Notes: a model not told the origin generated them from the letters alone. A stretch of 63,841 nt of DNA, filler included, from Cystobasidiomycetes sp. EMM_F5 (GCA_051047955.1; 3 parts of 3 records of this genome joined end to end with filler, not necessarily neighbours in it); one strand, 5' to 3'. Shown: positions 29,546 to 57,180, numbered from the whole stretch's first letter. Translations and numbers: made by a program.

Positions 29546-29645
29546 NNNNNNNNNNNNNNNNNNNNNNNNNNNNNNNNNNNNNNNNNNNNTTAATTAATTA
29601 ANNNNNNNNNNNNNNNNNNNNNNNNNNNNNNNNNNNNNNNNNNNN
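29546..29645. other. Assembly gap with artificial six-frame-stop linker
   Basis: 100 nt of N with central TTAATTAATTAA. Confidence 0.99.
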
Positions 29646-32600
29646 AGAGACGGCCGGCTTGACCCTTTGCAAGTGATCGAGTTTTTGGTGTGCGTGACAC
29701 AAGACATGGCGGTTTGCAATGTAACTTACTTCATAAGCGGCCTGACCAAAACAATGATGGCGTAGATAATGTGGCTAGCGCAATCGTCACTAAAATGGAC
29801 GTTGTATCGTACGAGACCAGTTGCGCTCAGACATTTGCTGTAGCCGGTGGTACTCGAGATCTTGCCATTCCATATGAGAATCGTCCTAAGGACAGCTGCA
29901 TTGGGGTTGCGAATAGTCTCCGAAGCAATCTCTCCTCCCCTTTGAGGCGGACCGTGTGCGAAATGGCGATAATACCTCAAGAGTGCTTCCAATTTCCAGA
30001 CGCTATGAAGAGCTGTCGCCGCTGCAATGGTAGAGACAGATAGATCTGAAGCACGGTAGCTGGGCAACAGGAATCGATCGATGAGACGCTGATCTCCGAA
30101 TATCTTGCGGATGAGCAGGCTCTGTAACTCCTTGATGCCGAGGTTGGCATCATTGGAGAGGAAGTTGGCCCCGCGATGGGAATGAACAGGAGTATCATGT
30201 ATACTGGACAATGGCGGCAGAAGATTAAATATTTCAGACAGCTCCAGGCCCAGACAAGCCTCTTCTAAAAGCTGTAGCATGTCATTCCTGATAGTACCAG
30301 TGAGGGTTGCAGCAGTCGTTGTCCACGAATAATGACTACCACTCCACGTGAATTGGTGTGGCATGTCTATCCACAGTAATCGAGGGACTGGTGTGCTCGC
30401 CATTACAGATTGCAATACGAGACCTGCTAGCGAACTGAGGTGGTCAAAAATGGTCGGGCGACCTATTGTGATAAAGTATTTTGCTTCCAACATTATGCCG
30501 TCGTGCACGCTCTGTAGGTTGTCGACGTCGGCACGTTTGACCCCCGCATGATATGCTAACAAGCGAGTGATGTACCTGGTTGCTGCAATTAGACTGGATA
30601 GACCGCGAGGATGTGCGAGAACGGCACTGTCTTGAAGATACTGTGGGTCGCCGACCACTGTATTGGAATAGCCCGATGTGATGAATCGAGAGGCACGTCT
30701 GACGGGCCGCGCCGATATCATCGACAGAGCCAAAAATGCGACGAGTGGGTGACGAATACCATACCCTACGGTGAGATGCGTCTTCTTCGGCAGCAGTACC
30801 GCCGCAAGCAAGTCTATAATAGCAGATTGAATTGGAGTGAGGCGACGGTGGAGGTAGCTGTGTTGGGAGGCGGCGTCATAGCTGGCTGGCGCTTCGACAA
30901 TATCCAGGACAGCTTCGATGAGAGAAGCGTCCCCTGGTACCGCTTGCATCATTAGATCGCGAGCGGCTAGTCGAACGATGTTGCCTGCCAAAGTACTGTC
31001 GCTATCTCGCTCGATTGCCTCCTCAGGTCTCAACACTGCTCCAGCATCATCGTCGTCGGCAGTATCATCTACCCCTTCCCCAGATCCATCCTGATCTTCG
31101 TCGTCATCCTCTGCATCGTCTATCATAGGCTCCGACAGGGTAGCGTCCAGCGTTGGTAGAAGAGGAACGGCTACTTGTGTACTGGAAGAAACTAGCGTAC
31201 TTGTGGCGTATGAACCAGCTGAGCGACGAGGACGTGAAATGGGATCTTTGCGCTGTGTACCGTGTAGCATAGACTGCGGTAAAGACTGTACCTCTCCTGA
31301 ATTTCCGTCCATTTGCAAAGGGGCGGTATGCTCGGTCTGAGCCGATGAGAGGCTAAGAAAGAGGTCGAGGAGGGCAGAACATGCGTGCCGAGCATCGTCG
31401 CTTAGCGTTATGCCGAGGCCATCGACAACTGCTGGCGTCCAATTGGTCTGGCAATGAGCCGTCGAAAACAGGTCGTCGCGCATAGAAACGGAAGAGTAGT
31501 CACGAACTGAGCTCAAGGAGCCCTTACGTCAGTCCCTGGCACGTTCTGGAACATTCAAGAACATTACGTCATCATAGAATGTTCTGGAACCCGGTGGAAC
31601 CTTGTGGAACATTCTGGAACTTTTGCCACATAGAAGCTTCTGGAAAGTTCCAGGCTGCACAGCCACCGCCACCTACCTGTAATATAAAAGATTACTCTTC
31701 TGTTGTATCTCTCCTTTCCTTTCTTCAGTTCAGATCTTGCCTAGTCAACCCCTAGTGGTGGTCTAGTTCAGTAATACATCCCTCTTCCTCTTTATACCCC
31801 AGCCTGGTAGTCGCCTGTCGCCTACTCAGCTCCTCCTTCTATTCCACCTTCCGACAAGAGTTCTGCGAAGCCGAGTGGACGCGAAGATGCCATAGGAGTA
31901 TTCGTGTAGCGACGTCGGCGTAGCGGTGAGCAGTACTGGTCTCTTGCAAGCGACGGAAATTCCGCACAGATTGCGATGCAGCCTCCAAGCTGTAAATTGA
32001 CAGATGTCAGCGGTATGTTGCACCCTGCAGATTAAGAGGGTCCTTACCCCGTCATGGTGTCGGTACGATCAGCCATTAACAGCTTGCGGTCGTGTATGTC
32101 GGCCTTGGCAGCTTGTTCCATCAAAAGCATGAACAGCCCTCGGACCTCCTTTCTGAGGACAAACTCTGCAGACCTCGTGTCGGTGAGAGACAGAGGATCT
32201 GGCATAGTAAGGTTCCTCACTAGTCCAGGGAATTTAGCAACAGCTACGTTCCAGCCCAGTACATTCCAGACCGGATTTTCCACGTGTGCTGCTACGCCGC
32301 CAGACGAGGCCATCCTGGCTTCGAGTCCACGCTGTTGACGCATAACAGCATCGATAAGAGTGAGAGGAGCTAATGGCGGACGCTCGACCACAAATCCAAG
32401 CGTAGGATCGTGTACATTTGTGGGGTTTGGTGCGAGTATCCTGCGAGCGATATGCAAACGGCTGATATCCAGAGTAGCTCCACGAGATGCATAGTCCGTT
32501 ACCGCTCGATGAAAGGCCGAAAGGATCCATCTGTCAACTTCAATGTGCTTGGGCTTACCGGCCACCCACATCGTTTGATAAACGGGTGTGGAGAGGCCTG

Positions 32601-33823
32601 GTCCCAACCCGTTCTCATTGTCGTTACGACGCTGGTTACATTGTCCCTTGCCGCAGCCAGAGCGCTTGTACGAGTCGCGATTGGCATATACCGCCTTGCA
32701 GATTTCGCAGGACCATCCGTCAAACGACAAAGATGCGCCTTCCAGCGGCTGAGTTGGTGCTATGCGCGCATCGAATACAGAGGAGTCGGCAGCGGCATGA
32801 TAGGAATCTTCGGGCCCTGTCGACTGTGTGCGATGAGAGCACAGCAGTCCACAAGCGATATCGGATCGAGGGTGGGCAGGGACGTCGGGTTCAGAAGCAG
32901 AGCAGTCGGAGCAGAGTTTGAAGCGAGCGATGTAGGCGTCCACGACGGATTCAATAATGCTACTGCTCTTGTGCGTGTCGCTGTGGTGAGTGCGTATGAC
33001 ATGTGTCGCGGCTGAGCGTCCTACGAGGAGTCGGCGGCAGTCGCGGTGCGAGCATATGAAAACGCCTCCGTAGGATAAATGGAGGTATAGGCCGCACCCT
33101 ACTAGATCTGCAGGGAAGCGAAGTAGAGATTGGTCTGGATCTACAGCTACGGGCATGGTAACTAATCCCGCCGCATCAGGTATCCAGTTTGCAGCCGGCA
33201 AGGGTGGAGCAGCCGCAGCAGCCTGAGAGCTGACGATGAGAGTCAGACTTTCGTCGGCATTCGCGGAACTAGCTCCTTCTCTATGCGCTGGAGAGGCATT
33301 CGCGGATTGTGAGTCGTGTTGATGCAAATTCCACGGTGGTAACGGTGGCAGGCTGGCTGAGGAGATGGCAGGCGCTGATGACGGACGAGTAGGTCCAGAT
33401 AGCTGTGCTATAGTCGGCAATGCAGTAGTGTTTAATGCGGAACTGGTGTCTGGACTGACGTCGATGAGAGACGCAGGGGCCAGACGCCGCTTGTGTGAAT
33501 CGGGAACGTCATCACTGTTAAAGGATGTATCGGCCTAGTTGACTTTAATATCGCCGTTCTAAGACTCACCCAGTCCCGTAGGGTGTACACCCGTTTGCGA
33601 TCCATTCTTGCTCGGTGGCAATAGGGCCAGGTATTGAGAAAGTACCAGCGGGAGCGCACGAATGTGCACGCCTTGCAGCTCTCTTGCCTTTAAAGACCCT
33701 ATCACAAAGAGGGCATGTGTAGTGCTCGCGCGAGGCCGGCATAAAGACTTGGTACTGGAGGGCGTCCCATCCTATCATAAAGCCGTACACGCCGTCCGCG
33801 GTAGAATGGGTACCAGCAGACAT
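29646..33823 (-). pseudogene. Large spliced gene: Zn-finger/OrsD(DUF3505)-like N-terminus plus the region found upstream of fungal telomere-linked RecQ helicases, with a tyrosine-recombinase-like motif; disrupted by an LTR and running into the gap
   Basis: ATG 33823 (CPLCDRVF..HSC) splices in frame (GG|GTGAGT..AACAG|T) to ORF 32044-33420 (ICSHRDC..HVIRTHH; CEIC..RDSYKR), then intron 32047-31991, exon FRRLQETSTAHRY, LTR, and ORF 29726-31516 with HFAHGPPQRGGEIASETIRN..RTILIWNG..TGYSK..LVRP; intron donor GTAAGT at 29729. Confidence 0.7.
31527..31856 (+). mobile_element. Solo-LTR-like insertion
   Basis: Ends (C)GTCAG...CCGACA; nGAAn arrays, TATAAAAG at 31683 and a pyrimidine-rich tract; sits between two exon pieces of the host gene; no TSD found. 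Confidence 0.65.
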
Positions 33824-34445
33824 AATAAAGGAACGAAAGAGGGCGGCGGTTGCGAGTTTGCATATAGAGAAACTGTTTGTGTTGTCCAGTAGAGGTGAGC
33901 AAAAGTGGGGGATGGTGGCGTGGGGATAATACAGAGGCAACATCAACAAGCAACAACAAGCTGGGACTTAGTCACTTCGCATGTGCACTGCATTGTACTA
34001 CTCTACAGTAGCAGCTGATCTCGCTACAAAGCAAACATTACAAACAGGACGTACACCGTGCGCACTGCGGTTGCAAACGAGTGACTAACTCGAGGCGCTG
34101 ACGCCTTTCGGAAGCGGCTACGGGAGTCTTGGGGTAATTCATGAAAGGCGCTGCATTCCGGAGCGTGTCAGCGTACCAGATAGAAAGAAAAAAATGGTGG
34201 CTGGAGAGCATCTTACTAAGAGCGCAGGAGGGTGCAACAAAGGCGAAGTTAATGGATGGGTAGGCGACTAGAAAACGACCATTCACTAGCGGCGCCGATG
34301 AGAGGCGCACGCATAAGTAGAACTCGTGGCCTATGTGGAATGTGTAGCACCGTGTATGTAATCTCAAACGATGTGTAACAGAAAAAGCGAGAGTGCCGGT
34401 CAAAAGCAGAGCGAGGAGCAACACCGGCTGTCAAATGCATACACG

Positions 34446-36041
34446 TCAAGCCAACTCCTTGAACCTTTGAATGGCAGCATTGCGCAACAGGTCGAAACGG
34501 CTCCAGCTGAGAATGGAAGCAGTCCGCTCAGCTTCGGAGAGGGTCGTTGCGTTGAGGGCCGCAGTCAGACTAGCGAGGTCCGATACCGCGGCCATTTTGA
34601 AGCATTTTGTGGGCTCCGCGTCGTAAAAGGCCATGTACCACTTATGCTGCGGAGTTGGGCGTTTCGCCTCATTGAAAGCCGCTGTGAGCTAGGGTGTTTT
34701 ATCAGACGCCGTGATTATGGATGGACAGCCTACGACGTACTTTCATCGGTCCAGCGAGATACAATGCGTTGTCTTGGAGAGTCATAACGCTCGGGTAGCC
34801 AGCTACGTGAACCCAGCCTTTACAGTTGTCGGAATCTACGAATGCGATGTTGTGTTGAGTTCCGTTTGGGCCGACATGGTGCTTGCTCCCAGCATGATTG
34901 TACTTGACTACTGAAAAGAATGACGAGGGCAGGCTCAGCCCAGCCTGCTGTGCACAGAACAGAGTGTGCTGAGTCTGAAGGTGAATTTCGGGTCAGGTGG
35001 CATCTGCACGAAGGCAAACGAGGTGAACCTACAACGATACGTGGATCGCCATTGACGCCGTAGTACAGGGGCAGATTGTTAAGCAACTCCTCTCCAAGCT
35101 TCTCCGCCTGGATTTGCAGGTCGGTGAGAGACCTTACAAAGCCGGGCAGATCCCCTGAACTCTTGCTGAGTTTCCATTCGCTGTTGCTGATGACAGCGTC
35201 CATATCGCTGCACATGCGCACGGCAATGCCGATATCGGCCAAATCTGTATTCCATTCGTCGCCCTGCTTGCAAGGGTCCCAGAATAAGGGCCTAACCGAC
35301 TCGTATGTTGCCCTACGGGTGTCGAAACCGCCCGCGCTGATTCGAGTTGGCGACGCGCTTGCCAGTAGACGAAGAATATGACCCGCCTGTACTAGATTCT
35401 AAAGATCCAGACGAAGCGATTGAGAGAGCACGCTTGTGGAGGGGCGTAGCATCGATGAGAGACGTACCACCCTGCACTTGCGCTTGGAGATGAGTAGTTG
35501 GTGAGGAGGAAGGACCACGGGCAGGAAGGACGGTAGAGTTGGATACCGGAACGGGATTCTCGCCCGTCATCGGGCTAGAAACAGCCAGCAGAGATGCCGG
35601 GGGGCTAGGACCGCTGTAGGAGAATGCAGATATGTTAGCGCAATGTAGCAAGCTGTACTATCAAACCTACTCTGCGACGCGAAACGGCGAGGTCGCTTCT
35701 GCCAGGGCAATGAGGCGATCCTGCTCAATTTCGTTGGGGTCGGGACTGGACGTGAACGGCCAGCCCGAGTGAGGATCCAGGCCTAAAAGCGTGTAGATAT
35801 CTCCGCCTGGCGGATACTGTCCCTCTCGGAGCCATGCTGGCGCTTTCATCGCGATAAATGCCTGGCAAGGGAAGGCGCGCGGCCTTTTAATGCCGTTGGA
35901 AAAAATGGGACTGGAGTGCTGGCGAGAGGGATGGAGGCTCAGGCCATCGCGCTGGAGTGGATGCAAGTGGCCAGGGCTGCAAGGCAGACGGAACGGAGGT
36001 GGAGAGGGGCGCAATGATAGATTATGGATTTCGATGCTCAC
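34446..36041 (-). CDS. Probable spliced hypothetical protein (island cargo); structure uncertain
   Basis: Chain of co-oriented ORFs (35667-36041, 35313-35651, 34820-35242, 34446-34634) ending at GT-like donors; no recognisable domain. Confidence 0.4.
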
Positions 36042-36846
36042 AATAGCCTGTATATAAGTAATACAATGGTACTACTGTCCAATCCTATCTCCTTTGCGTA
36101 GTCCAGCTTAGGCCTGTAGTTTATGAATCTGCGCAACCCTCACACCAAATCCAGGAGCACCCGTATGCAAAGCTGGGGCGGCGAGTCAGCCGTACAGGGC
36201 CATGTCGATGAGAGACATGGCACACTGCCGTTGCTATTGTTGACATGATAGGCTGCGCCTGAGTGGGGGAGGGCAGAAGCACAATCGATCAGCTACGATT
36301 GTCTAGACGTAAATATAACGCGATTTACATGTGCTACTTCACCGTGTGAAGATCCTGTGTAGATGTAGCAGAGCCTAGCATGTGCATCGAGACCGTATTT
36401 ACACGCATGACTTTACACAGAGAACAGGCTAGTAGGACCACTAGCAGACGAGTATCCGTAAAACTACCGAAAGTACGCCAACTCTAGCGTGGACAGACTA
36501 ATGCAGACCTCTGATTTCACTGAACGTCGGTACATTTACTACAGGCTCGGGATGTTTACGCAAAAGGAGAGACTAACCGTGAAAACGAGGAGATTGTATG
36601 ATTGGAAGTCTGCAGGGGCGAGCACAAGCGATGTCAGAGCCTCTTGCCTTGCAGAGGGTTGACGTATTCAAAATACTTACGGAAAGATTTGAAAGCTGAG
36701 CGAGGAGACAATGCGGCGAGCAGAGACGATGAGAGTCTCATGCCAAAGGCGCCATCGGGGAAACAGAAACGGTGTGGGGATTCTCGCTGCTGCATGTAGA
36801 ATGCCGAAGCCAGCAGAGTGGTAGCGAGCAGGACGGGCACGTACGC

Positions 36847-39800
36847 TCAAAGTGGGACAAGGCCAGTCTTGGAATACGGAGAAACACTGACTGTCGGCCA
36901 TTGAGGAATGAGATTGCCAGAGTAGTCTGCAGTGTGGCGATGTCGCTGGTCGACGTCGTTGCGGCTGAGCCTGAGTGGAGCACGAACAGCCGGTGTTGAC
37001 CGTGTAAGCAGTGCGCGCTCCTCGACGCCCTCTCTCAGAGGAATGACGTAGTGTTTGCCGCCATCGCTGGAGATGTGCTGGATGTTACAGTCTGCTACGA
37101 CGACATCGGCCTCTTCGGCGTTGTACCCGAGTTCGCTAATGATTTCCGAAAGGTAGGGGAACCCTGGTGACACTCTCATGTCCCGAATGATTCCCTCGGG
37201 CATGGGTCGCACTGTTGATGCGGTCGACGCCGACGATGCAGAGGTCGATGAGAGACCTACTGCAGCCGATAGCGGTTGCCAGCCTACGGTGTGTGTGCGG
37301 GGAGCCGGAGAGGTACTGGATGGGCCCTTTGACATATACGCCGCCATTCCGAAAGGATCGTCTTCGTCATCGTCGTCGTCGTTGTCGTCGTTGTAAGTGG
37401 ATTCAAAAGTCTCCCGCTTCCTCTGCCTGCTCTTTTTGCCCCGCCTACGTCGCTGCGATTGAGCGGGCATCTCATTCACCGGCGGCTGGGCCGGAGCTGC
37501 CTCTGCGAGTCTGAATTAGCCAGAGGTATCGCCATGCTAACGGACGACATGCTCACCATTCGTTGAACTACCGAACAACTGGCCGTAAGCTACCCTGCGA
37601 CGGTTGACTTCTGCGTCGGTATGGCGGGGTCTGGCGATGCTGCGAATCAACCAAAACAAAGCCCGTCGGCCTTCCTGATCAAGAATAGGTGCACTGTCCA
37701 AGCCGGGAACCATTAAATACAGTCGTTCGATGCAGCAACTGTACATGCAGCCTTGGAATTTGGCGATATAGCCTGGGTCTTGCAGATATGGAGCTCCGAC
37801 GTGCCGACCGACGCTGAAGGAATTGACGAGCCATAGCTCTTTGAGATTGTGCAATTCTTCGACGAGGCAGAACCAAGAGAGACACGGCATGTCTTCCACG
37901 ACCAGTTTTGTGATGGTTTCGAAGGCAGGGATATACCAATGGCGTACAAAGTCCGTCCGGAACAGACCGACAGGGTCGTAGTAAGGACCTCCAACGAGAA
38001 CCAAGCTTGTAATACCGCGACACGAGGAGAGAAAGTCGAATAGCATCCACTCGTACACATAAGGGACGACGCTGTCCTCGAGGCGGGAGCAAGAGTGCTG
38101 TACGCGAAAATCCAGTGACAGACTGTGGAGGAGAACATACGCGCGAGATTTTGTCGAAGGATAGTCGGAAATGTAATGCCTCCATTGGGTATCAAACTGC
38201 TGCGGCGTACCTACGATGCCCGGCATGTTGTATCGCTCGCCAAAATCCCGGATGTATGCTTTGGGGTATAATGGCCCCGTCTCGCCTTTTCCGTCGTTGT
38301 ATAGCCGAAGGACAGACAGCAGAGACTCAAAGGCATCGATGGAGCGGATTTTGAGCGAGATACCTTCGGAAACAGACCCTCTCCATTGCAGATTCCAAGC
38401 ATTTGGCCGCTTGATAGCATGCAATGCTGCCAAGATGTTCCAGCTTCCCAAAGATATTGCCAACAGCGAGCTGGAGCGAGCTTCCCACGTCGACAGAGTG
38501 TCGCTGACTGTAGTGCCGCGCCAGACAAGAGTTGAGCGCTCAAGAGCGGCTCCGTAATTGGAAGCTGCGTCGTCTGGGTGAGAGGCTACGCCGTAAGTGA
38601 GCAGAGCTTCTGATGGGAACGGGAATCCTAGGTGCAACAAATCGTCCAACACGAGCCTAAGCCCATGATCTTCGACGACGTTGTCTATATGTACTCCGGC
38701 ATAATGCGGCGTCTCGTGCGATTTTGGATATCGGTTATGCAGATTGAAGAAGATGGCCTCGCGTATCTGCACGAATTTTGGCAATGGATTCAAGAAACGT
38801 AGGCTATCCCAGTCGGATTTGAGGGTGCTCGTTGGATATTGCGATGGCGACGCCTCAGGGGCTGCGGAGAATGCAGTGGGTCCAATGCGTGACTGTACGA
38901 GTGTGAGTGCGGCAGCGGCAGCTCGAGATGACGGCTTTGATGGAATGATGTCGACATCTACGGCCGGTTTTCCAGCAGTGCTGCCTGAATTGAGAGCTAC
39001 TTTGGCGGAGGCTCCTGGTGTCGATGAGAGACATTGTTCACCTGCCGGTTCGCTGACGGTCGAAGGGATGCGGGACACAACAGGAGAGTCGACGGGCTCC
39101 TCGAGTGACAATGTCGATGAGAGACATATGTCTAACCCGCGAGCCAAATCAGCGGAGCCCGTCGATGAGAGACGACTTGCCGATATGGAAACTGTCGGTA
39201 GTGTCTCGCACTCGACGACATGTTGTACTGTAGCGACGGCCTGTCGGGACGCATTAGATTAGTGAAAAGCTGGTTGCCAATAGTAACGATAACGGACCGC
39301 CTGTTTGCCGACGGGCAGTTTCAACGTTGGAGAATGTATAACCGAGCTGGCCGGTGTGGGCAAAGTATTGCTTGAGCTGCTGCTGCTTTGAGAGGTGGAC
39401 CTATCTATGGCGACCGATGAGGGGAAACTGTGATAGCAAAGCTCATCAGCTACTAGAATTGCGAAAGTGTACTAAAGCACGTACTAATCCTCGGGACTAC
39501 ATTCATGGAAAGTATCATGCGACGCGTTGCTGGGAGAAGGCGGCAGACGCAGTCCAGATTTGTCGGCTGTAGAAGGCAAGGGGGTGAGAAATCTAGACAG
39601 GCCGAGCGCGTCTATGTCTTGCTGGGATAAAAGGGCGGGCCAGAGGATTGCGGGCTCGCCCATTCCCGGAAAGTCTGATGGGAGTGGCCGAGCAGCTCCA
39701 GGGCGTGTTTTGATCCATGCTATGAGACCGAGTCGCAGGCAAGCACTAGCTGCTGCTCTAGCAGCGGCGTCCCTCGTACGGAAAACATCGCCGGGGTAAG

Positions 39801-40952
39801 CGCCCACTTCGAAGACGTCGCCCAGAGGTCCACGGACTTGCAGGACTGGCCAGTAGGCGTTGACTTTTCCTTGCGTAGCGGCAGACGATTCTACTTGATG
39901 CAGCCGTTTTTGACCACGGATTGTCGCTGGTTGAGCCGGCTGCTGGGTAACGGACGGAGTCCACTGCTGAAACGCAGAGTAGTACAAGTGTGCCCCTTCA
40001 CTATCATAAGCAAGGGATACATGACCCGCAACGACGTGATAGCGAAAGTCAAAGTCGGGCATAAGTTTTGAGAGGAGGAGCATAACGAAGGGAGCGTTGC
40101 AGTACCCGGGGATGACATCGTCGATGAGGGACGGTTGCCATGTAGGAGATGTGCAAGTGAATGGTTCCTCCCTAAACCGTGTCACCATTCTTTGCTCTGC
40201 CTCGCTGTAGACCATCTTGTCGCAATCGCGTCCCACAGCTGATTGTCGGCACAAATAGCCGCCCATGTTGCGGCGTTCTTTCCGGGATATAGGCGCCATT
40301 CGCCTGCCGGGCCGAATTCTATGATAATGCACGGACACGGCTGACCTTCAACGTCCTCTGACATGCTCGTGGATATGTATCGGCGGAAATCGAGCGGGCA
40401 CAATCTCTTGTATCGATCCTCACACAGGTTCCTTGGGGGCGTAAGGTCTGATAATCCTACTATGAGACTGCTGACTAGGCGCCTGAAGGTAGCCTTTACG
40501 GCCTCTTTCGTTCCTGCGCCTGTCGACATCGCGATGCGGTCCCAGCCATCGGCATTGGAGACGCCTGCGAATGTGTGGAATGACACGCTGGGAGACGCGA
40601 GATAGGTTGGCATACCGGTGGAAGTGGTGTGCCGCAGGACGACCAGAGACGTCTCCACACAGACATTTTCCTCTTCAGGGAGCGAATCCTGTACCGTTTC
40701 CTGCAAATCGGCCAAAAGAGTGGAAGGCGAGGGATCGACGTCGTTGGGCGGCGCTGACGCATGGTAGATTGCAGTGCGTTGGCCAGTCGCCTGGGATTGT
40801 ATCATATGCATGACTTCACTTGTAGCGGTTCGGCCCAAAGACCCCTTTTCGAAGACATGGGTCCACAACTCAATTGCATCTTGGCCAGTCAGAAGGGCAC
40901 CGTCTACATAGACATCTATGCTATTGGCTGCCAGCTCCTTGATTTCTGCCAT
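36847..40952 (-). pseudogene. Unknown large protein, copy A (dsRBD-like + LRR/RNI-like + conserved C-terminal block); frameshifted near 40215
   Basis: ORFs 40182-40952, 39484-40338, 37537-39147 and 36847-37479 are joined by in-frame introns 39484-39428, 39297-39241 and 37556-37503; collinear with copy B. Confidence 0.75.
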
Positions 40953-41369
40953 TCTCAGAGACGAGCGGAGAACGCGTGGTGACTTCGATGAGAGAAGTGC
41001 ACTGAGCGGTTAGGGGGTAGTGCGGCCTGTTCAACTTCGATGGGAGAAGTGTGATACAGGTGTGCAGAGGGCGGGGTGGGATGTTTGAGCTGGATTGTTC
41101 GAATCTTGAGTGGCGTGCTGTAAAGACGGGTCGAGATTAGCGGATGTAAGAACAAATGGAATGGGAGAGCGTCGTCGATGGGAATCGGATGGTGGAGAGT
41201 AGTGGATCACTGGCTACTACTCGCCGTCAGTCCTGCTACGGTGACTCCCGAAATAAATCGAGTGCAAGGCTGAGGGGGGACATGACGAACACGACAGAGT
41301 AACGAGCGACAGCAGATGCAGACACAGTCACAGCACTGTCGATGAGAGACAGTGCTGTGCTATGCCTAA

Positions 41370-41370
<1 letters not shown>

Positions 41371-41410
<40 letters not shown>
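41371..41410. repeat. (CTG)13 microsatellite
   Basis: Read directly; the paralogous position 48387-48401 has about 5 units. Confidence 0.95.
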
Positions 41411-42779
41411 GCCTGGCCTGCCTTTGCCTGGACGGTGAGTTTGTTTACTCACCTGGCGGGACGGAGGGAAGGGGAGGGAGGGCGAGTTTGGTATCGATAT
41501 GATGCTGCTGACGGTGGTATCGTAATGCTATAGCTGCTGCTGATGGTTGTCGTCGGTCGTCGCTTGCAGGCGGTCGAGTGAATTGGTGGTTGAAAGAGAG
41601 AGAGGGGCAGGGAAGGGGCTGGTAACTGATGACCGCGTACCGGCGACAGAACGACAGAGAGCATGGATATGATTCAAGGGCAGCAGTCAGTAATCACCAC
41701 GAATGCTAGTCAGCTGCTGCTACGCGTCTCTCATTGACGCTGGCTGCAGTTGGCAGCGTCGAGCTCGAGAAGGCGGTGAGTGTGGAGAGGAGGCACGGCG
41801 AGTGTGAGGAGCGTGTGGGACTAAACTACTACGTGTCAGTGTCAGTCCTGATCCCTGCTCTACATCTTCTGCCAGCTCGGCCTGGACGGTATAATCGCTC
41901 TTCTCCATTGTGGCACTCTGCAAGCGACCAAGGCTCCCGGACGACATGTGATGCATTGTACTGACTAGAGAGCTAATGCTATATGCTACAACGAAGAAAC
42001 TGAGCTCCCTCCCGCAATTTCCCGTACTGCCGAATCTGGCAGGTGGGGCTACCCCTGAGCAGATTTTACGCGTCTGAAGGAGCGGAGACGCGTAAACTCC
42101 ACTGCTAATACTCACTCTTGGGTGGAGCTGCTCTGCACCCCACCTGTGACTTTCTATCGCTACTTGCTGCTGCTTCGTGCCGGACGTGTAGCAAAAGCCC
42201 GTACGACGGCGTGGAGCGGGCAAGGAATGGCGGATAATGAGCGTAGGCTGCAGTGTGCTGTCCGCAGGTGTACTGTCTCTCATCGACAGAGTAGCCGGCT
42301 CGCGAGGAGCTGGTATGTTCGGCTGGACATTGGGTGCGGTTGCGGACAGGGTTCACAATCGTAGCGAATGCCAGCAATGTTGTAGCAAGACCAGAGGAGA
42401 GCCCAATCGCCTAGTAATGCCAAGCAAAATTGGATTCATTGGCCTACAACACTGACATCCGTGCTAAAAGCGAGCTACACTGACAGAGACTGGTGAACCG
42501 AATTTAATGACAGAACTACTGAACAGAGACTTTCCTGCGAGTACAATGGCAAAACGCTACGAACGGATACTGTGAAGCTGAAGCTGCTGACAGTGTTACT
42601 CGTGTATGCCGGAATGCGGAGACGATGAGAGTCTCACGCACTAAGCCGGCTGAGGGGAAGGCGGAGAAATAGAAGCTGGACCATAAGAGCGAATTAGAGG
42701 GATCGGGCTATCTAAGCTGCCTACGTAACTCTACTCACTATGGGAGGATGCTGACGTAACAGCAAGAGAGGGGCAGCAT

Positions 42780-45700
42780 CTAGATCCAGCCGTCGTCTTC
42801 GGTATTGTACGGTGGTGGCTGATTGATATTGTTGTAATTAGTTTGTCCCCAAGTCGACGTGCTGTGATGCTGAGTATTGTAGCCATGAGAGGCAGTCGGA
42901 GGGTACATAGTGCGAGCAGACTGCTGATGGCGATGACTGGATCCATGTTGACGGTTGTCGGAGTAGCTGTGGTAGCTGCCTGGATTGTGATGATAGTTTC
43001 CGCTGCCATTGTTCCCGTAGTAGCTCCCAAACTGTCCGGCTGCATGTTGAGGAGGAGCTTCATTGAAGTGGGCAGACGTATACGGGGAAGATGCATAGCC
43101 ATTATACGACGACGAAGGGTGGCCTGAGTGGGACGTAGACGACTGCAGAGCGTAAGACTGAGGGCGTGGCTGAGCAGTGGTATGCCACGAGTCTTTGAAG
43201 AGGTTTGGCGCATTACTCGGACGACTGGCAGGGTATGAGCTACGGCCATTGGATCGGCGATTCGAATTGTTGGCTTGACTGATTCTAAAGGCCTCTTCAA
43301 CTGACACGTAGGGCGACACGTCCCTTTCGGGATGTTGGGGTATCGCTTCAGCATCCGTAGGGGCGAACCTGGAGTCGCTTTGGTGCTGAATGTCTACGTC
43401 TAAGCGAGTCATAAGTTTTGCGTCCGACTGCACTTCGCCCAAAGGACGAGTGTAAAGAGCCCTCTCCAGTACTCCTGGCCGTATGCTGGAATGAACGTAA
43501 AAGTCTGCATCGGATGGCGAAATGTACTGAATGTCGCAGTCAGCTACGTTGACGTCGAAAGCCTCGCCAGGAGAAGACAATTCCTCGATGAGCGCTGCGA
43601 TATGATTGAAGCCGGCCGATATACGGACGCGACGCAGGACATGAGGACCTATCTTGGGTATCACAATAACCGGGGTCGATGAGAGACCCACTGGCATGTT
43701 GCTATTCCCTGCAAACGACTTCTTGGACGGGCGGTAAAAGTCGGCATCCAATTCGCTGTCCGATGAAGTATCGTCGTCTGTGCCCTGTCTCTTCTGTGCA
43801 ACCTTCTTGCGCTTTGAAGCCGCTTTCGACGGCGCAGGACCAGTTACAGCATTGCCTAGGCCATCGGTGAGACCGACAGGCTGTCTTCAACTGACACGTA
43901 GGGCGACACGTCCCTTTCGGGATGTTGGGGTATCGCTTCAGCATCCGTAGGGGCGAACCTGGAGTCGCTTTGGTGCTGAATGTCTACGTCTAAGCGAGTC
44001 ATAAGTTTTGCGTCCGACTGCACTTCGCCCAAAGGACGAGTGTAAAGAGCCCTCTCCAGTACTCCTGGCCGTATGCTGGAATGAACGTAAAAGTCTGCAT
44101 CGGATGGCGAAATGTACTGAATGTCGCAGTCAGCTACGTTGACGTCGAAAGCCTCGCCAGGAGAAGACAATTCCTCGATGAGCGCTGCGATATGATTGAA
44201 GCCGGCCGATATACGGACGCGACGCAGGACATGAGGACCTATCTTGGGTATCACAATAACCGGGGTCGATGAGAGACCCACTGGCATGTTGCTATTCCCT
44301 GCAAACGACTTCTTGGACGGGCGGTAAAAGTCGGCATCCAATTCGCTGTCCGATGAAGTATCGTCGTCTGTGCCCTGTCTCTTCTGTGCAACCTTCTTGC
44401 GCTTTGAAGCCGCTTTCGACGGCGCAGGACCAGTTACAGCATTGCCTAGGCCATCGGTGAGACCGACAGGCTGTCCAGGCTGAGTAACAGGGCGGTCGAA
44501 GAGTGGGCCATATGCTGCTCTGCGCCGGCGTACTTCAGCCGCCCCGTGACGTTGAAAGCCTATGCTCCTGAATAACCAGTAGAGCATCGCTCGCGCATTG
44601 TCGTCCATCGACCAAGCGTTGTCGAGACCGGATACTTCAAGTCGCAGCGACTCTATTCGACAATATTCGAGACGCCCTGCTGCCTTGGGAACGAAACCAG
44701 GGTCAGGTAAGCTGACAGCGCCTACGCTACGACCTGTCGAGAAGCAGTTGATTAAGGTAAGGCGCGTGATGTTTTGCGTTAGATTCAAGAGACAGTGCCA
44801 GGTTTGATAAGGCATGTCTCTTATGGACAGGGTGGTGAGGGTTTCCTTGCAGCCGATATGCCATGCGTAGACGAAATCTTCTCGAAAAAGGGCGACGGGA
44901 TTGTAGAAGGGACCGCCGACAAGATGTAGCGATTGCAAGCCGACTACGCACGACAAGAAGTCGAAGAGCATATGCTCGCTTACGTATGGAATTGTGACTT
45001 TATCCAGTGCCGAGCGTTGATGCTGAATGCGGAAATCTATGGCCAATTTGTGCAGTAGCACATAGGCTCGCCCTGCTTTAACGTAGCCCCCGCTGATGAA
45101 CTTCCACCACTCGTCACGAAATTGCTTTGGAGTTCCCCATATGCCCATCATTTGAACTTGGCTGCCGTAATCTTGGAGGTAAGCTTTGGGGAAGAGTGGA
45201 CCCGTCTCTCCTTTGCGGTCATGGTATAAACGTAGGACTGCCAGCAAGGACTCGAGTGCGTCGATGGACCGCAGCTTCAGAGCAATGCCTGTGTCTGCTG
45301 AACCGCTCCACTGAATATTAAACGCGTTTACGCGGCGGATGGAATGTAGAGCGGCCAGGATGGACCAATTGCCCAAAGAGATTTTGTCCAAAGCGGCTGT
45401 CCTTACTCCCCACGTTTCTAGCGTCTCCTTTGTCTGACTACCTGTCCATACGAGTGTCTGTCTGGCGGAAACAGCACCGTAGTTGCGGGCTGCATCGCTC
45501 GGTGGAGATTCCTCGCCGTAAGTGATGAGCGTTTCGCGAGGAAAGGGAAAAGGTAGTGTGAGCCGCTCATCGAGTGTAGCTCGCAGCGCTATGTTGTTGA
45601 TTACATCGTCGATGTGCACGTTTCCGACATCTAGTACTTCGTCTTTGCGGGGATAACGGTTGTGCATCGAATGGAAGATGGCGCTACGTGCGTCGATGAA

Positions 45701-47967
45701 TGTGGGGAACTTTACGAGCGGACTGAGGAGCTCCCAGTCGGATTGGATAGTGCTCGTAATCCCGGAGGGGTCGAACGGCAAGGGAGGGGGAGCGAGTAGA
45801 ATCCTAGACGCAGCAGAGATAGCTGTACTGGATGCAGTTGCCGCTCTTGCTGCTAGGTCGACTGGGACGTGCCCGGTGAGCTTCATGCCAGGCTTCCACT
45901 TGATTCTCCCCGACTTTGAAGCTACTGAGGCCGATGCTACTGATGTCGATGAGAGACATTCTTCGCTAGCCGGTTCACTGACAGTGGATGAGACGCAAGG
46001 GATCGAGACAGTATCATCTAGTCGCGGAGAAGGCTTGCTTGGTGATGGCAATGTCGGTAACGTGCTCGTTTCCTGTTCAAGTACATCGCCAGCTACTAAT
46101 GTCGATGAGAGACATGTTTCGCTGGGTAGTGCTGTCACTGCAGCTGCCACTGATGTCGATGAGAGACACTTTTCGCTTGCTGCGGTGATAGGAGGAGACT
46201 CTGGACGAGTAGCGGTTTGGTGCTGCGGGAAGCCAAAGTCAGCGTAGGCGGTATGAACGAATTTGGGTAAAACGCACAACTACTGCCACAGCCGGTGAAT
46301 AGGATGCCTCGCTGCCGCTCCAGTCGAGCTCTTCCGTGTCCACGTCCATGCTATGGGCAACTGACATAACTGGTGCTCTGAAAAGAACAAAACGAGTCAG
46401 TGGATTGGAAAAAGCGGTGCATCATGGCTTACTTTACTGCATTCTGTGCAGGTGGTGACTGGGGCGTGGGCGGTTCGTCTATATCCATTGATGAATCTAA
46501 TTGTGGGCCGGCTGCCAAAGACTGGGCGGGCTCAGCCGCAAAACTCTCGCTGAGCGGCGTCAGAGGCGAACTAGGCGTAGGAGGAAAGGGAGCCGATTGA
46601 ACAGAGGGGGGTGTGTATGGCACTAGAAAGTCTGCTAGTCCCAATGCGCTAATCTCAGCTTCGGTGGCAGCTGCTGGCCAGCGGTTAAGCGGCGGTCCTG
46701 TACCCGGGAAATCGACGGGGATGGAATGGGCAGTGCTTTGTAGTCTCCTGACCCAGCCTACTAGTCCGAGTCTCACGGCGGCGTTCGCAATCGCCCTTGA
46801 TGCGAGTTCACGTGTTCGAAACACTTCATTCGGACCAGCTGCAACCACTAAGCAGTCTCCCAAGGGACCGATGATCTCGAGGAGGGGCCAGTATGCGTTG
46901 ACCAAACCGGAGGTATGCTGTGAAGCGGCATTCTGGTACGCTCGATGAGCGGCACGGCCCGTATTTGCTGTGGTAGATGTAAACGTGGACGGAGTCCATG
47001 ATTCGTATGGAGCCAAGCGTGCTTCGTGCGGATCAACTGTTTGGTCGATGTAATAGTAGCCGGCGACAACGTGGTAGCTGAATTGAACGTCGGGCATGAG
47101 TTTTGAGAGGAGGAGAATAATGAAGGCTGCGTTGCAGTACCCGGGGATAACATCGTCGGTGAGAGACGGTTCCCATGCGGGGCTTGTCCAATTAGCGGGT
47201 GCACTCCTAAACTCTGCGACGATTCTCTCTTCTGCTCCGGTTGGTGAGTAAAGGTGGTTCGCTATAGCCCAGTAATCGTCCTGCTGAAGCGCGTTGGTCC
47301 ATGCTGCCGCATCGTGTCCCGGTACGATTCGAAGATGTGGTGGGTCGGGGCCTACAATCATGCAGATTGAGCCTTCCGTCAGGAATAAGTGGGTACGTGG
47401 GTCCAGCGGCACGACACGCTTGAAGCGATCTGTTACTTGATTTCTTGAAACAGAGGTAGGTGGAGGCTGTACGCCGAACATCTGTCCGAGACCTCTCAAC
47501 GTGGCCTTGATTTGCTGTTTCGTATGCACGCCGGGCGTCATAGCAATGCGATCCCAGCCTTGATCGTTGGCTGTCACGCTGTTGTAAGTGTGATATGCGA
47601 CGCTGGGTGTGGTGAGAAAAGTGCGAACACCGCTAGCGGGTGTCAGATGCACTGTCAGCTGACCTATCGTAATCTCGCGGCGTTGCTGCCTATGTTCATC
47701 GGCTTCGAGGCTGGACCGGATGTATTCCAGCTTGGTCAACGCTCGAGTAGGTGCGGAGACGGGATGGGGAGTGCTGTGAAAGAACTGCAGCCTTGAATCG
47801 GCCTGTTGCATAGTGAAAAGGTCTGTGATCTGAGCTCGGACATGTGCTGATATGCCTTGGCCGTCGAAAGCGGAATCCCACAGCTCGGCTGCATCTTGGC
47901 CAGTCAGAAGGGCACCGTCTACATAGACGTCTGTGCGACTGGCTACTAGCTCCTTGATTTCTGCCAT
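42780..47967 (-). CDS. Unknown large protein, copy B (same architecture plus a Y/N/Q/G/S/H-rich tail); frame broken by a 590-bp tandem duplication
   Basis: ORF 46429-47967 joins ORF 43856-46279 through in-frame introns 46432-46378 and 46277-46223; tail in ORF 42780-43751; shares MAEIKEL..DVYVDGALLTGQDA, DDVIPGYCNA..LLLSKLMPD and MLFDFLS with copy A. Confidence 0.75.
43294..44475. repeat. Apparently perfect 590-bp direct tandem duplication (43294-43885 and 43884-44475)
   Basis: Identical text at offset 590, identical ORF translations (43491/44081, 43679/44269) and a 2-bp TC microhomology at the junction. Confidence 0.97.
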
Positions 47968-50628
47968 TCTCAGAGACGAGCGGAGAACGCGCAGTGACTT
48001 CGATGAGGGAAGTGCACTGAGCGTGTAGGAAGGGGTGCAGCCTGTTCAACTTCGATGAGAGAAGTGTGAAGCAGGTGTGAGGGAGAGGAAGGGAGCGAAT
48101 GGCTGGACTGGCTCCGTCGTGCTGGAGTGGCGTGCTGTAAGACGGGTCGAGATTAGCGGATGTAAGAACGAATGGACTGGGAGGGCATCGTCGATGGGAA
48201 TTGGATGGTGGAGAGTAGTGGATCACTGGCTACTACTCGCCGTCACTCCTGCTACGGTGACTGCCGAGGTAGAGCGATTCCAAGGCTGACGGCGAACGCG
48301 GCGGAGGTGACGGACGGGCGAGCGGCAGCAGATACAGACACAGTTACAGCACTGTCGATGAGAGACAGTGCTATACTATGCCTGAGCTGCTGCTGCTGCT
48401 GCCGCTGCCCTGTCTGCGCTCATCATCTGAGAAGGGCGGGTTTGTTTACTCACCTGGCGGGACGGGAGCAAATGGAGGGAGGGCGAGTTTGGTATCGATA
48501 TGATGCTGCTGACGGTGGTATCGTAATGCTGGAGCTGCTGCTGGTGGTTGTCGTCGGTCGGCGCTTGCTGGGGGTCGAGTTGGTTGGAGTTTGAGGGAGA
48601 GGGGCGGGGAAGGGGCTGGCAGCTGGCGACTGCGTACCGGCGACGGAAGGACAGAGGGCATGGATATGATTCAAGGGCAGCAGTCAGTCATCACCACGAA
48701 TGCTAGTCAGCTGCTGCTGTGCGTCTCTCATCGACGCTGGCGGGGGCTGATGGAGTTGGGTGGGCGGGCGAGTGGAACACTGAGCAGGTCAAGGGAGGAG
48801 AGCAGCGGACGAGGGTGAATCTGGTACACGTTAATCAGTGCTTGGACGTGGCTGATCAGCTGTATCTGGACTGCGGGGCTGCCGGTGGTGGTCGCGGCTC
48901 AGCATCCCAATGGACGTATGCAGGGAGCACAGAGCAGGCTGAGCGGCAATTGGCAATGTGGTACTGACTATACTGATGCTACTGACTATCACTGAGTACA
49001 CTGTTCCCTCTCCCGTCTCCTCCCGACCTGCCGAATTTGGAAACGGCCGTACTACCCCTGAACGAGTTTCGACGCGAGTTACGATGCGGAGACGCGTAAC
49101 TTGGGTGTGATTAGCCTCACCGTGATGTGCACTGAGAGTATATGGTGTTGCAGGAGGTTTGAGCACTGTTTGACGGGTGTATATCTGACTGGCTATGACA
49201 AACAGAGCTGGGCGAGCCTACAACGGATATCTGAAGCCGTAACTGAAGCTATAGGCTGGTTGCAAGCGTGGTATGATGCTGCCGTGTGTGTGACCTGTCT
49301 CAGCTGGATGTCTGTCTCTCATCGACAGCTCCGAGCGGGATGGCGGGGCTAAACAGATGTGAGCGCCTATGGGGGTGAGAGGATGGGTAGAGAATGGCGC
49401 TGTGAGTGCCGAGGTGATGCTACTGCCTGTCTGATGTGACTGGTCGCTGATTTACGTGGAAACGGTGATGTTTGCGGCGATGAGGACTGTGACGGCTAGG
49501 CTAGCGTGGGACTGGAGCGTAAGCGGACGTAATAGATGAAAGTGCACTGTCGTTGTGCATAGTATGCATGCGTGTCGGGAAGCTGTCTGATGTCGTGTCG
49601 ATATCTGTCACTGTAGCTTGAAGTGGCTAGCTGGGTTGTCTGACGACTACAACATGGGAATACTATGAGACAACGGCGGACCTACTACAGTATGGTACTC
49701 TCTGTAATGCTGCTGCGGCCACTCCTGTCCTGGTCATGCCTCTCATCGGCAGCAGTGGGGGGTTGCATGAATGACTTGCCATGCGGGCCTGCACGGAAAA
49801 GCGACGGTAGTCTCGAGTAGGGGAGGGAGGACAGTGTATGCAGGCAGACTGCATCGTGGGAGATGGTTAAGCTACTGTCCGAGCTGGAATTGTCTCTCAT
49901 CGACAAACTGTGCTCGGCTGTACAGTAGTTTGGCTGGGGGGCTGGTGGTCTGGGTGAGCGAGCTATTTGCGCAGACTGACACTGATGCTGAGGATTGGGT
50001 ATACAACAGACAATTGCTACATCGTCGTGCTATACTCTATTGCGCTGCCTGGAGTCTTGCACTGTGTTATGGTCTCGTCTCGTTGGGGCTGTTTTGATTC
50101 TACTGGAACAGGGTAGAATGTCTCGAATCGCTGTCAGGTTGGAATACTAGCATATACTACCTACACACACTGCTCTCATCGCTGCTGCTGCTGTGTCTCT
50201 CATCGACACTCAGTGCTGTTGGTGGTTCTATGGCGTGCCTGGGTGGCAAACGTCGAAGGGCAACAGCGCCGTCAATAAACATCTTGGAGAGCTGGGAATT
50301 GCACTGAGTGGCTAGATACAACGTCTGAGGGTACTGTCTTTGCCTGCTTCGCTATATCGGTGCTGGTTGCTGTGCTGTTGGAGGTCCGAGCTCCTCAGTG
50401 AGGAAAAAGGACCGAAGTTGTTATCTCTGGCTACAGGAGTGCTGGAGATTTGCTGTTTGGTATGGAGATTCTTTGACAGTGCATGGCGATGCTCCGAGAC
50501 TTATACGCTCTTCCGGCTGCTGGGTTTTCTGCAATGCAGACTTGAAGTTTTCTCCCCATGTTTGCCACCAATTTTTGGACTTTGCCACCGGAATGGGGGC
50601 CCATTCCTGGCAGTATATAAGTAGGTTC

Positions 50629-51688: not shown

Positions 51689-52439
51689 TGGCGGAGGATG
51701 CTGATGGTCTTTGATATACGGATAGCCAAACTATGGGTCGCGTCTCTGCTTCTCCACCTTTGGTTGCTGTGTTTGGTACAGCTGTGGTGGTGACTTGCGG
51801 GGCATTCTGGGAGGCAATACTACGGGTTTACAACGTTGGCTTAAGACTGTACACTGGACACCTGCTCTGCTTGATTGGCTATGCTACACAGTATTGCTCT
51901 GCCTCTATGCTGGTGGCGGAATACAGCGACTTGACTTGACTTCATCGGATGGCTACGAAACTTGGTATACATATAGTTCACTTCTCTTACATTGCTATGA
52001 ACATGCCCGGATGACTGGAAACATCTCTGCCTGGATGCTGTTGGTGGTATTATGTTCGTGCCTGGCTGTGCCTGGCTGTGCCTGGTGGCGACAGCGGCGT
52101 ACAATAACTCTGTCAATATACATCGTCGGCAGCTATAAGTCTGCACTGAGATTCTTCATAACATTTGAAGCAACTTTGTCTATTCAGTTTTCTTATATCG
52201 CTTCTGGTTTGGCTGCAATTGAGACTTTTAGCTCCTGAGTGAGAAAATTGGGCGAATCGCTGTAGCTCAGTCAGTATTAACGCTGGAGATCTATAAGTCT
52301 CGCCTGAGATTGTTCTGCTATGCTACAATCATGCTTGCTTGTCTGTTTGTCTTTAGCGGCTCTAGTTTTTGTGCAAATGAGACTTGAAGTTTTTCAGTAA
52401 CGATCAGGCACAGCGCCCATAAGTTCTCACTTTCTACAT

Positions 52440-56948: not shown

Positions 56949-57180
56949 GGTTGAGCAGGAGCGAGTGTCGAGTCTTAATCTAGTTGTCGCGTACGCAAAA
57001 CGGCGGAGGCAGAATTGGCGGACGAGGGCTGGGATTCGGACGAGGGGGTATTCGCTGGTGCTCAAGAGTGCAAGGGCTGGAAAGCTAGAGACTGGGGGGC
57101 TGTATTGCGCAGATGAATATTGTTTGTGAATCAGATTAAGACTAGAGAACAAGAAGGACTATGAATCTTACAACGCCTTT

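Follow-up and report, generated by a model that had tools for sequence, protein, structure and literature searches.

A sharply bounded family of covarying seven-nucleotide-loop hairpins under selection in one contig of Cystobasidiomycetes sp. EMM_F5

Dispersed stem-loops read by a protein have been described in single-stranded RNA (ssRNA) viruses and in the pregenomic RNA of hepatitis B virus (HBV), where packaging signals with variable stems reportedly share a loop motif and one protein reader, and the benefit they bring scales with their copy number (PMC6281560, PMC5699041, PMC7612645). In fungi, determinant of selective removal (DSR) motifs, which are read by Mmi1, mark meiotic mRNAs of fission yeast for elimination (PMC3352096), and the Ssd1 element CNYUCNYU is found in cell-wall mRNAs, often in several copies per mRNA (PMC8934651, preprint 10.64898/2026.08.03.741543). 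Here, we describe a 17-nt hairpin element found in a stretch of 63,841 nt (filler included; the window in the following) that joins three parts of the genome of Cystobasidiomycetes sp. EMM_F5 (GCA_051047955.1). The element consists of a 5-bp stem and the 7-nt loop GATGAGA, with the consensus RYGTC-GATGAGA-GACRY, and its copies are restricted to a single contig of 27,999 nt in the middle of the window (29646-57644), referred to as the island.

Dispersed small hairpins with a conserved head and covarying stems are also known in bacteria as repetitive extragenic palindromic (REP) sequences, which are extragenic and tied to the RAYT transposase. The bacterial uptake signal sequences and DNA uptake sequences (USS/DUS), in turn, are 9-12-nt motifs that accumulate in place in genes, in all frames and in weakly constrained segments, by uptake bias and with no need of a hairpin; to our knowledge, no machinery of the REP or USS type is known in fungi. 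String and concept searches of the literature did not find such an element described for fungi, primer, short hairpin RNA (shRNA) or guide contexts being among the matches listed for the 9-mer string, and the genome announcement does not mention it (PMC12697161). Rfam returned no match at E values up to 1 over 29646-57644 on both strands, hammerhead and small ribozymes, IRE, histone stem-loop and SECIS included. A two-copy DNA pattern recovered 56 loci in metagenome contigs and three in viral contigs, all of them ordinary tandem repeats, which are unrelated because their flanks are identical and their stems do not covary.

The window contains 30 copies of the 9-mer CGATGAGAG, i.e. the loop with its closing C and G, where 0.96 would be expected and the largest value in 100 dinucleotide shuffles is 4, so that the recurrence noted in a preliminary description of this DNA is borne out. 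The 36 sites listed there all exist, its positions being those of hairpin starts, 4-11 nt before the 9-mer, and they include 29 of the 30 exact copies; the one missed is the weak copy at 50173(-), with a 1-bp stem and 14.1 bits. Exact copies are confined to 30916-50205 (23 on the + and 7 on the - strand). The bare 7-mer GATGAGA is found 42 times (14.2 expected), and the 12 occurrences without the closing C and G scatter in a chance-like manner, 10 of them outside 30916-50205. A one-mismatch scan, with a stem of at least 3 bp required, added seven copies in the same interval, all differing by a transition, which brings loop variants to 7/37 of the family: the core CGGTGAGAG at 32181, 35122 and 47157, CGATGAGGG at 40122 and 48001, CGATGGGAG at 41038 and CAATGAGAG at 41728(-). 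Nine further one-mismatch matches lie in the other contigs and in the Ty3/Gypsy element of the island, with a 3-bp stem only at 3494, and 13 more within the island contig have stems of 0-2 bp. Another one-mismatch variant, CGATGAGCG, is present at 43586, 44176, 45564(-) and 46943, has no flanking stem at any of the four and was not counted as a hairpin; two of these copies are the same sequence as the result of a tandem duplication, and they may be chance matches or a coding motif.

A covariance model of 25 positions, built from the hairpin alignment and run over the whole window with filters off, gave 36 matches of 20.9-31.4 bits, all at 30908-50213. Below this set, scores fall from 20.9 directly to 15.3 bits (3486-3510, -), followed by 14.1 (50165-50188) and then values of at most 10.5, so that half-decayed copies form no tail. 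The match at 3486-3510 (E 0.02, loop GATGAAA, 3-bp stem plus C-G) is the sole hairpin-like one outside the island contig and is probably due to chance. The absence of the element from the housekeeping contigs and the Gypsy element, noted by eye in the preliminary description, thus holds, 15.3 bits being the best score outside 30908-50213; the Gypsy element (52318-57158) has no hairpin copy, and covariance matches there reach at most 10.5 bits. The hairpin family, at a density of about 1 per 520 bp, is therefore real, sharply bounded and restricted to one contig within the window. The hairpins had also been placed on an accessory island between housekeeping blocks, which does not hold: N44-TTAATTAATTAA-N44 linkers, with stop codons in all six frames, occupy 29546-29645 and 57645-57744 and tie separate contigs together into the window, and the gene neighbourhoods across linkers, that of the island with the housekeeping blocks included, are therefore not real.

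Base pairing of the stem is supported by covariation. The alignment comprises 36 sites, with only 43677 included of the identical pair 43677/44267, and pairs were counted on 35 distinct rows. From the loop outward, pair 1 is C-G in 35/35, pair 2 is paired in 35/35 (UA 27, AU 3, CG 3, GC 2), pair 3 in 33/35 (GC 27, UA 6), pair 4 (columns 6-20) in 35/35 (CG 14, UA 14, GC 4, AU 3) and pair 5 in 29/35; pairs 6 and 7 are formed in merely 8 and 9 of 35, respectively, so that the stem is exactly 5 bp. The same length follows from the 30 exact sites, where at least four Watson-Crick pairs stand beside the 9-mer in 22 (exactly four in 19), three in 6 and one in 2, and the common four pairs plus the fixed C-G make up the usual stem of 5 bp; the longest, at 41340, has 12 bp. 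The covariation score is 0.544 against 0.144 in shuffled alignments, with 0/500 shuffles as high, in agreement with the compensatory changes proposed earlier, and when the 3' partner is shifted by 1-3 columns, 33-47% of cells pair instead of 75%. The three inner variable pairs contain no wobble pair and all but two of their cells are Watson-Crick, while the outer pair has five wobble pairs against six other mismatches; counts of G.U versus A.C do not discriminate between the strands.

The sequence GTC...GAC around the loop is common to 27/35 distinct copies, and these inner half-sites, palindromic and mostly fixed, would suit a dimeric protein bound to duplex DNA at an interrupted palindrome GTC-N7-GAC. 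Several copies, moreover, encode CLSST in tandem protein repeats, as would be expected of a repeated peptide motif. Both proposals are very improbable. Independent half-sites would yield C.A and T.G combinations, but columns 6-20 and 8-18 are complementary in 35/35, and a protein that reads each half-site of duplex DNA independently is excluded by full complementarity at two pairs that vary freely. A peptide motif is ruled out, since translation runs through the hairpin in three frames, giving LSS, SLI(D/E/T) and SHR, and the hairpin is also found in UTR-like (untranslated-region-like) and non-coding DNA.

Evidence for selection comes from two old paralogues within the island. Gene A (P0022; 40952-36850, - strand, 1276 aa, five exons) carries five hairpins in exons, and gene B (43859-47967) is represented by the open reading frames (ORFs) 46432-48045 and 43859-46279. 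Their proteins are 40-52% identical, and the identity of third codon positions (25-44%) is close to the 26% expected by chance, so that synonymous sites are near saturation. Sites were picked on gene A alone, and the state of gene B is therefore a fair test. Within the hairpin 17-mers, 92/101 nucleotides are identical, against 1796/3457 outside; at third codon positions the figures are 31/35 and 405/1151 (Fisher p 1.7e-10), and at third positions of codons for identical residues 26/29 and 225/522 (Fisher p 8e-7). The five hairpin windows have 13, 17, 16, 15 and 16 identical positions of 17, with a background mean of 8.8, and 15 is reached by 124/3073 other 17-nt windows. All sites shared between A and B (10/10) are present in both paralogues; the conserved patch is just 15-17 nt long, and its flanks diverge at once. 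Two paralogous pairs show compensatory double changes, namely 37246/44267, with the outer pair changed from A-T to G-C, and 39163/46157 (C-G to T-A). The loop tolerates change, in that 5/9 shared sites compared by eye have one copy with a loop transition. In the non-coding DNA, 42273-42289 and 49312-49328 are identical (17/17), with flanks that cannot be aligned. Nucleotide-level purifying selection thus acts on the hairpins on top of coding constraint, and the selected structure-plus-loop signal of the preliminary description is upheld by covariation together with conservation far above that of saturated synonymous sites.

The strand of each hairpin is taken as that which reads CGATGAGAG, the opposite, gene-sense strand reading C-UCUCAUC-G in the consensus 5'-RYGUC-UCUCAUC-GACRY-3'. 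All copies up to 41359 are on the + strand, the first six being within the coding sequences of P0003 and P0024: 30912..30928 (P0003, read as SLIE; 29.2 bits), 31339..31355 (P0003, LSS; stem 3+1 bp, 21.6 bits), 32177..32193 (P0024, core CGGTGAGAG, SLTD; 21.3 bits, the homologue P0010 being ungapped across the site), 32827..32843 (P0024, SHR in the third frame; 22.8 bits), 33230..33246 (P0024; 25.8 bits) and 33458..33474 (P0024, SLID; 27.6 bits). They are followed by 34292..34308 (stem GCGCC; 29.4 bits), where the minus-strand ORFs are fragmentary, 35118..35134 (core CGGTGAGAG; 20.9 bits), 35449..35465, with an imperfect stem (one A.C, one G.T; 23.8 bits), 36202..36218, whose stem extends to 8 bp (29.3 bits), and 36723..36739 (27.6 bits), about 110 nt 3' of the stop codon of gene A in a 3'-UTR-like position.

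Within gene A, the copy in exon 5 is at 37242..37258 (27.2 bits; paralogous to 44263) and three are in exon 4, at 39018..39034 (read as CLSST; 16/17 identical to 45943), 39111..39127 (CLSST; 31.4 bits, 17/17 with 46099) and 39159..39175 (13/17 with 46153), while that in exon 2 is at 40118..40134 (core CGATGAGGG, SLID; 15/17 with 47153). Upstream of gene A are found 40982..40998, about 34 nt 5' of the start codon (40952) and 5'-UTR-like (paralogous to 47997), 41034..41050 (core CGATGGGAG; paralogous to 48049) and 41329..41359, which has the longest stem (12 bp including C-G) and lies at the edge of a conserved non-coding block (paralogous to 48352). Two flipped copies on the - strand complete this half, at 41724..41740 (core CAATGAGAG, non-coding; paralogous to 48721) and 42273..42289 (paralogous to 49312).

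The series then resumes on the + strand with 42619..42635 (26.2 bits), directly downstream of the minus-strand ORF 42783-43886, and 43673..43689 within that ORF (read as GLSST; 29.5 bits), to which 44263..44279, in the 807-aa ORF of gene B, is identical through a 592-bp tandem duplication. The gene B ORFs also contain 45943..45959, 46099..46115 (31.0 bits) and 46153..46169, all read as CLSST, and, in ORF 46432-48045, 47153..47169 (core CGGTGAGAG, SLTD). Directly upstream of the gene B Met is 47997..48013 (core CGATGAGGG), and further upstream are 48049..48065 and 48352..48368, the latter with a 9-bp stem including C-G, again at the edge of the conserved non-coding block. The remaining copies are flipped to the - strand: 48721..48737 (non-coding; 31.0 bits), 49312..49328, 49736..49752 (stem 3+1 bp; 24.0 bits), 49890..49906 (25.4 bits), the weak or decayed copy at 50169..50185, with an exact 9-mer and a stem broken to 1 bp (14.1 bits), and 50193..50209 (27.3 bits), the last of the family.

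The exons of the three annotated genes contain 11 hairpins, and the CGATGAGAG strand is antisense in all 11, as it is for the further hairpins in the long ORFs of gene B; the mRNA would therefore carry C-UCUCAUC-G. Other copies stand directly 5' of start codons (9-mers at 40986, 41038 and 41340 for gene A; 48001, 48053 and 48356 for gene B) or directly 3' of stops (36727 and 42623). Orientation flips between 41340(+) and 41728(-), and the paralogous flip is found between 48356(+) and 48725(-). Each flip spans the conserved non-coding block (copy A 41350-41760, copy B 48366-48757), which has stops in all frames and in which the two 7-kb copies resemble each other more than anywhere else, with 84% identity by blastn over 40863-41744 against about 52% nucleotide identity in the protein-coding flanks. 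We infer that the block is a bidirectional promoter and leader region; alternatively, it may be an unannotated RNA. It holds a (GCT)n run and G-rich tracts, with no match in Rfam. The GC skew of the + strand is strongly positive over 32000-57000, reaching 0.27 at 48-50 kb, and stays so across the flipped blocks as well as in the Gypsy element; the sense strand of the island genes is C-rich.

Which molecule folds was addressed by structure prediction. Isolated 21-mers fold as the expected hairpin, with -3.2 to -5.8 kcal/mol for typical copies as RNA, -9.1 and -10.2 kcal/mol for the two strands of a GC-rich copy as RNA, and only -1.8 to -3.2 kcal/mol for typical copies as DNA; with a DNA hairpin of 5-bp stem and 7-nt loop so weak, cruciform extrusion from duplex DNA is implausible. 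In the native context of 50 nt on either side, RNA folding gave a mean stem probability of 0.90 for the pyrimidine-loop (gene-sense) strand against 0.58 with shuffled flanks (Wilcoxon p 2.6e-8), and of 0.76 against 0.52 for the purine-loop strand (Wilcoxon p 0.001), the difference between the strands having p 0.005. Poor folding on the purine-loop strand is seen at eight sites, 6/8 of which form the hairpin well on the pyrimidine-loop strand. Combined with the orientation of the copies, these values favour, only moderately, RNA of the gene-sense strand over single-stranded DNA (ssDNA). Thus, of the readings proposed in the preliminary description, that in RNA is moderately favoured by orientation and native flanks, cruciform DNA is unlikely in view of its weak folding, and ssDNA is less favoured.

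Reading as ssDNA deserves separate consideration. The hairpin would be recognized, upon unwinding of a mobile or autonomously replicating element, by a helicase, nuclease, recombinase or primase, and would serve priming, nicking, recombination or packaging. The strictly Watson-Crick stem, with no G.U excess on either strand, is consistent with this proposal, as is the restriction to one contig that also bears a gene related to proteins with a DEAD/Helicase_C helicase at their end, is internally duplicated and abuts a Gypsy element; the high density and the near-identical 13-mer core would fit selection on a whole replicon. We nevertheless consider it unlikely. Orientation flips twice in the island, at the promoter-like block, the hairpins are weak as DNA, and they lie within old paralogous, host-like genes with introns. 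Furthermore, no domain of a transposase, Rep protein, recombinase or capsid came up in Pfam scans that covered 35 of the 68 island ORFs with a length of at least 90 aa, and neither target-site duplications nor terminal inverted repeats (TIRs) were found, the contig being cut on the left and running into the Gypsy element on the right. The large mobile element of the preliminary description finds no support in the same scans or in target sites.

The explanation that we put forward, tentatively and as plausible rather than probable, is that of a multi-copy RNA hairpin, read by a protein, which tags the transcripts of the island. The pyrimidine-loop strand would be the functional one, and the hairpin would be carried by all island transcripts, in exons in any frame, in leaders and trailers and in divergent upstream non-coding transcripts, giving them a common post-transcriptional fate. 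By analogy with the DSR-marked meiotic mRNAs of fission yeast, this fate might preferably be selective recognition for repression, elimination or sequestration. DSR motifs are alike in being short, strand-specific cis-motifs clustered in transcripts, coding regions included, that mark a gene set for a common RNA fate; they differ in being an unstructured hexanucleotide, whereas the present element is structured and 17 nt long, and in serving a dispersed regulon rather than one physical island.

Several observations weigh against this RNA tag. Ten hairpins per 4.8-kb transcript, within coding sequence, far exceed what known host regulatory hairpins need, and no candidate reader protein is found among the island ORFs scanned for Pfam domains. 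Both strands outfold their shuffles, so that the strand preference is modest, and G.U pairs are enriched on neither strand, which fits DNA, or a need for both strands, equally well. In the flipped blocks the + strand is G-rich, unlike the C-rich sense strand of the genes, and transcription there is assumed. AlphaFold models of two conserved parts of genes A and B have mean predicted local distance difference test (pLDDT) values of 39.5 and 36.2 and are unusable, origin in place is known at one site, through one homologue of 32% identity, and the genome note of the isolate describes DNA sequencing only (PMC12697161).

How the copies arose bears on a further alternative. At 32181, P0024 reads PDPLSLTDTRS where the 32%-identical P0010 reads PNPVALKDTSS, with no gap over 20 residues on either side, and since P0010 aligns without a gap, this hairpin was written into existing codons rather than inserted. 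An insertion of 17 nt would disrupt the reading frame, yet the ORFs of 600, 496 and 807 aa continue uninterrupted through 2, 4 and 4 hairpins, respectively. Target-site duplications are not apparent, a 2-nt direct repeat being present at 1/36 sites (2.2 expected) and none of 3-5 nt. A miniature inverted-repeat transposable element (MITE) or DNA-transposon footprint was rejected on these grounds (no target-site duplication and, at the one site, no insertion relative to P0010), and no match to a known MITE or repeat footprint, which the preliminary description had named as evidence against its own claim, emerged from Rfam, target sites or insertion gaps. The presence of the same 13-17 nt at about 20 independent sites could possibly reflect selection on each copy, conversion or template-switch drive, or both.

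Drive without a function of its own would consist of short-patch conversion or template switching that rewrites the 13-mer and a local inverted repeat, somewhat like bacterial uptake sequences. The widely shared GTC...GAC, the origin of at least one copy without length change, the position of most copies in low-complexity, weakly constrained protein segments, the nearly equal frequency of wobble pairs and A.C mismatches in the outer pair, and the loop variants, all of them transitions, would be expected in this case. Such drive is nonetheless quite unlikely as the whole explanation, as the conserved patch is shorter than usual conversion tracts, stems change in a compensatory manner between paralogues, no continuum of decayed copies is seen, flanks favour folding beyond their composition and a machine recognizing the hairpin would still be required.

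The library from which the sequence derives might itself be suspected. The transposase end adapter and the 3' half of the hairpin presumably have a 6-8-nt stretch in common. The isolate was sequenced from an Illumina tagmentation library and assembled with SPAdes (PMC12697161), so that an assembly or library artefact, e.g. adapter-derived sequence, has to be considered. It is extremely improbable, given that the copies lie within a 28-kb contig and have unique sequence to either side, keep long ORFs open, show transitions and, where diverged paralogues are compared, compensatory changes of the stem, vary in their stems beyond what any adapter could produce and come from an assembly at 142x coverage (PMC12697161). 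Some probability is reserved for explanations not yet conceived.

The remaining content of the island may be described briefly. The annotated proteins P0003 (31510-29729, -) and P0024 (33605-31842, -) form a stretch (29729..33605, -) with six hairpins. A single homologue, P0010 (542 aa), aligns with both, and the two are probably one long gene split by annotation, whose helicase end would lie past the contig edge. Indeed, an exhaustive protein search with the 600-aa ORF gave 19 matches to distant relatives, in the C-terminal half only; in homologues, the domain that corresponds to the C-terminal half of P0003 is flanked by an OrsD zinc finger and a DEAD/Helicase_C helicase, and one such homologue is named DNA 3'-5' helicase. 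This architecture recalls the telomere-linked RecQ helicase genes of fungi, a possible link; no telomere repeat array is found in the window. Protein word searches with the 807-aa ORF, the 496-aa ORF and residues 331-557 of P0024 returned only the window's own proteins, the scanned island ORFs gave no Pfam domain, and ESM Atlas gave for P0022 weak F-box/LRR leads (0.82-0.84, under the lead threshold of 0.9). The stretch 33550-36850 has no paralogy to the rest of the island.

Within the 3' portion of gene B, 592 bp are duplicated in tandem without any difference (100%; 43294-43885 / 43884-44475). This duplication doubles one hairpin and yields two overlapping ORFs, 42783-43886 and 43859-46279; either a very recent event or an artefact of short-read assembly may account for it. 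The end of the first of these ORFs (42783-43300, -) is a long low-complexity tail rich in Q, S, N, H and Y, of prion-like composition, with no counterpart in gene A. The Ty3/Gypsy element (52318-57158, -) has near-continuous ORFs for gag, protease, reverse transcriptase (RT), RNase H, integrase and chromodomain, and no pair of long terminal repeats was found for it within the contig.

Among the systems described, the element works most like arrays of protein-read stem-loops, if the analogy is a guide. As in viral packaging signals, many stem-loops run through the sequence, coding regions included, with a shared loop motif and variable stems. Viral signals, however, are degenerate, whereas island copies are almost identical; the island has no capsid or polymerase domain in the scanned ORFs apart from the hairpin-free Gypsy element, its genes have predicted introns, and its orientation flips twice, unlike a single packaged strand. 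REP sequences share the dispersed small hairpins with conserved head and covarying stems, but island copies are frequent in exons and in the ORFs of gene B; the 35 island ORFs scanned with Pfam gave no HUH/Y1 transposase domain. USS/DUS motifs are similar in arising in place within genes in all frames. The Rickettsia palindromic elements (RPE) are likewise small hairpins within protein-coding genes that leave the frame open, but their insertions are a multiple of three long, whereas the 17-nt island element, devoid of target-site duplications, replaces residues without an indel at the one site known.

The sense strand C-UCUCAUC also fits 7/8 positions of the Ssd1 element. However, CUCUCAUC has C at position 8, where, according to the preprint, U8 is a base-specific latch (10.64898/2026.08.03.741543), and the first C, described there as recognized through its Watson-Crick edge, is base-paired in the hairpin. 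Ssd1 sites are reportedly single-stranded and concentrated in 5' UTRs, whereas the island hairpins are mostly in coding sequence, in genes without cell-wall annotation. The resemblance is a lead only and could be chance (a few per cent, as a rough estimate).

The hairpin has the geometry of an anticodon arm (5 bp and 7 nt), and mimicry of a tRNA anticodon arm or T-arm was rejected because its loop is wrong. Rejected on inspection against consensus sequences were also the hammerhead core, of which one U is missing, K-turn or C/D box, Ire1 7-nt splice loops, the sarcin-ricin loop, the Helitron 3' hairpin and integron attC. The geometry would also suit loop-directed adenosine-to-inosine (A-to-I) editing of fungal mRNAs; such editing prefers a U before the A, and the sole A of the sense loop follows a C. 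Editing sites in fungal mRNAs lie mostly in hairpin loops, according to a review (PMC7306014).

More speculatively, and with considerable doubt, the hairpin could be an address label by which sequence in a eukaryotic nucleus marks itself in a way not known before, with a dedicated reader for the 7-nt loop and 5-bp stem. Such a reader would distinguish a selfish island, which might be subtelomeric or mobile, from host sequence by its transcripts or by its DNA when unwound. Copies would multiply in place within genes, each raising the island's transmission, silencing escape or packaging, and the system would be the structured, nuclear equivalent of uptake sequences in bacteria or packaging-signal arrays in viruses.

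If the description of the hairpin given here holds, the family would be a rare eukaryotic nuclear case of a structured nucleic-acid signal that fills protein-coding exons at high density in all reading frames, is maintained although synonymous divergence is saturated, and occurs in one gene island only. It also gives warning that synonymous sites in the hairpin-bearing genes are not neutral. The small size of 17 nt makes the case directly testable, and the covariance model can map copies in this and related genomes; once the reader is identified, it might become clear how a fungus, or a selfish element within it, labels transcripts or DNA as belonging together.

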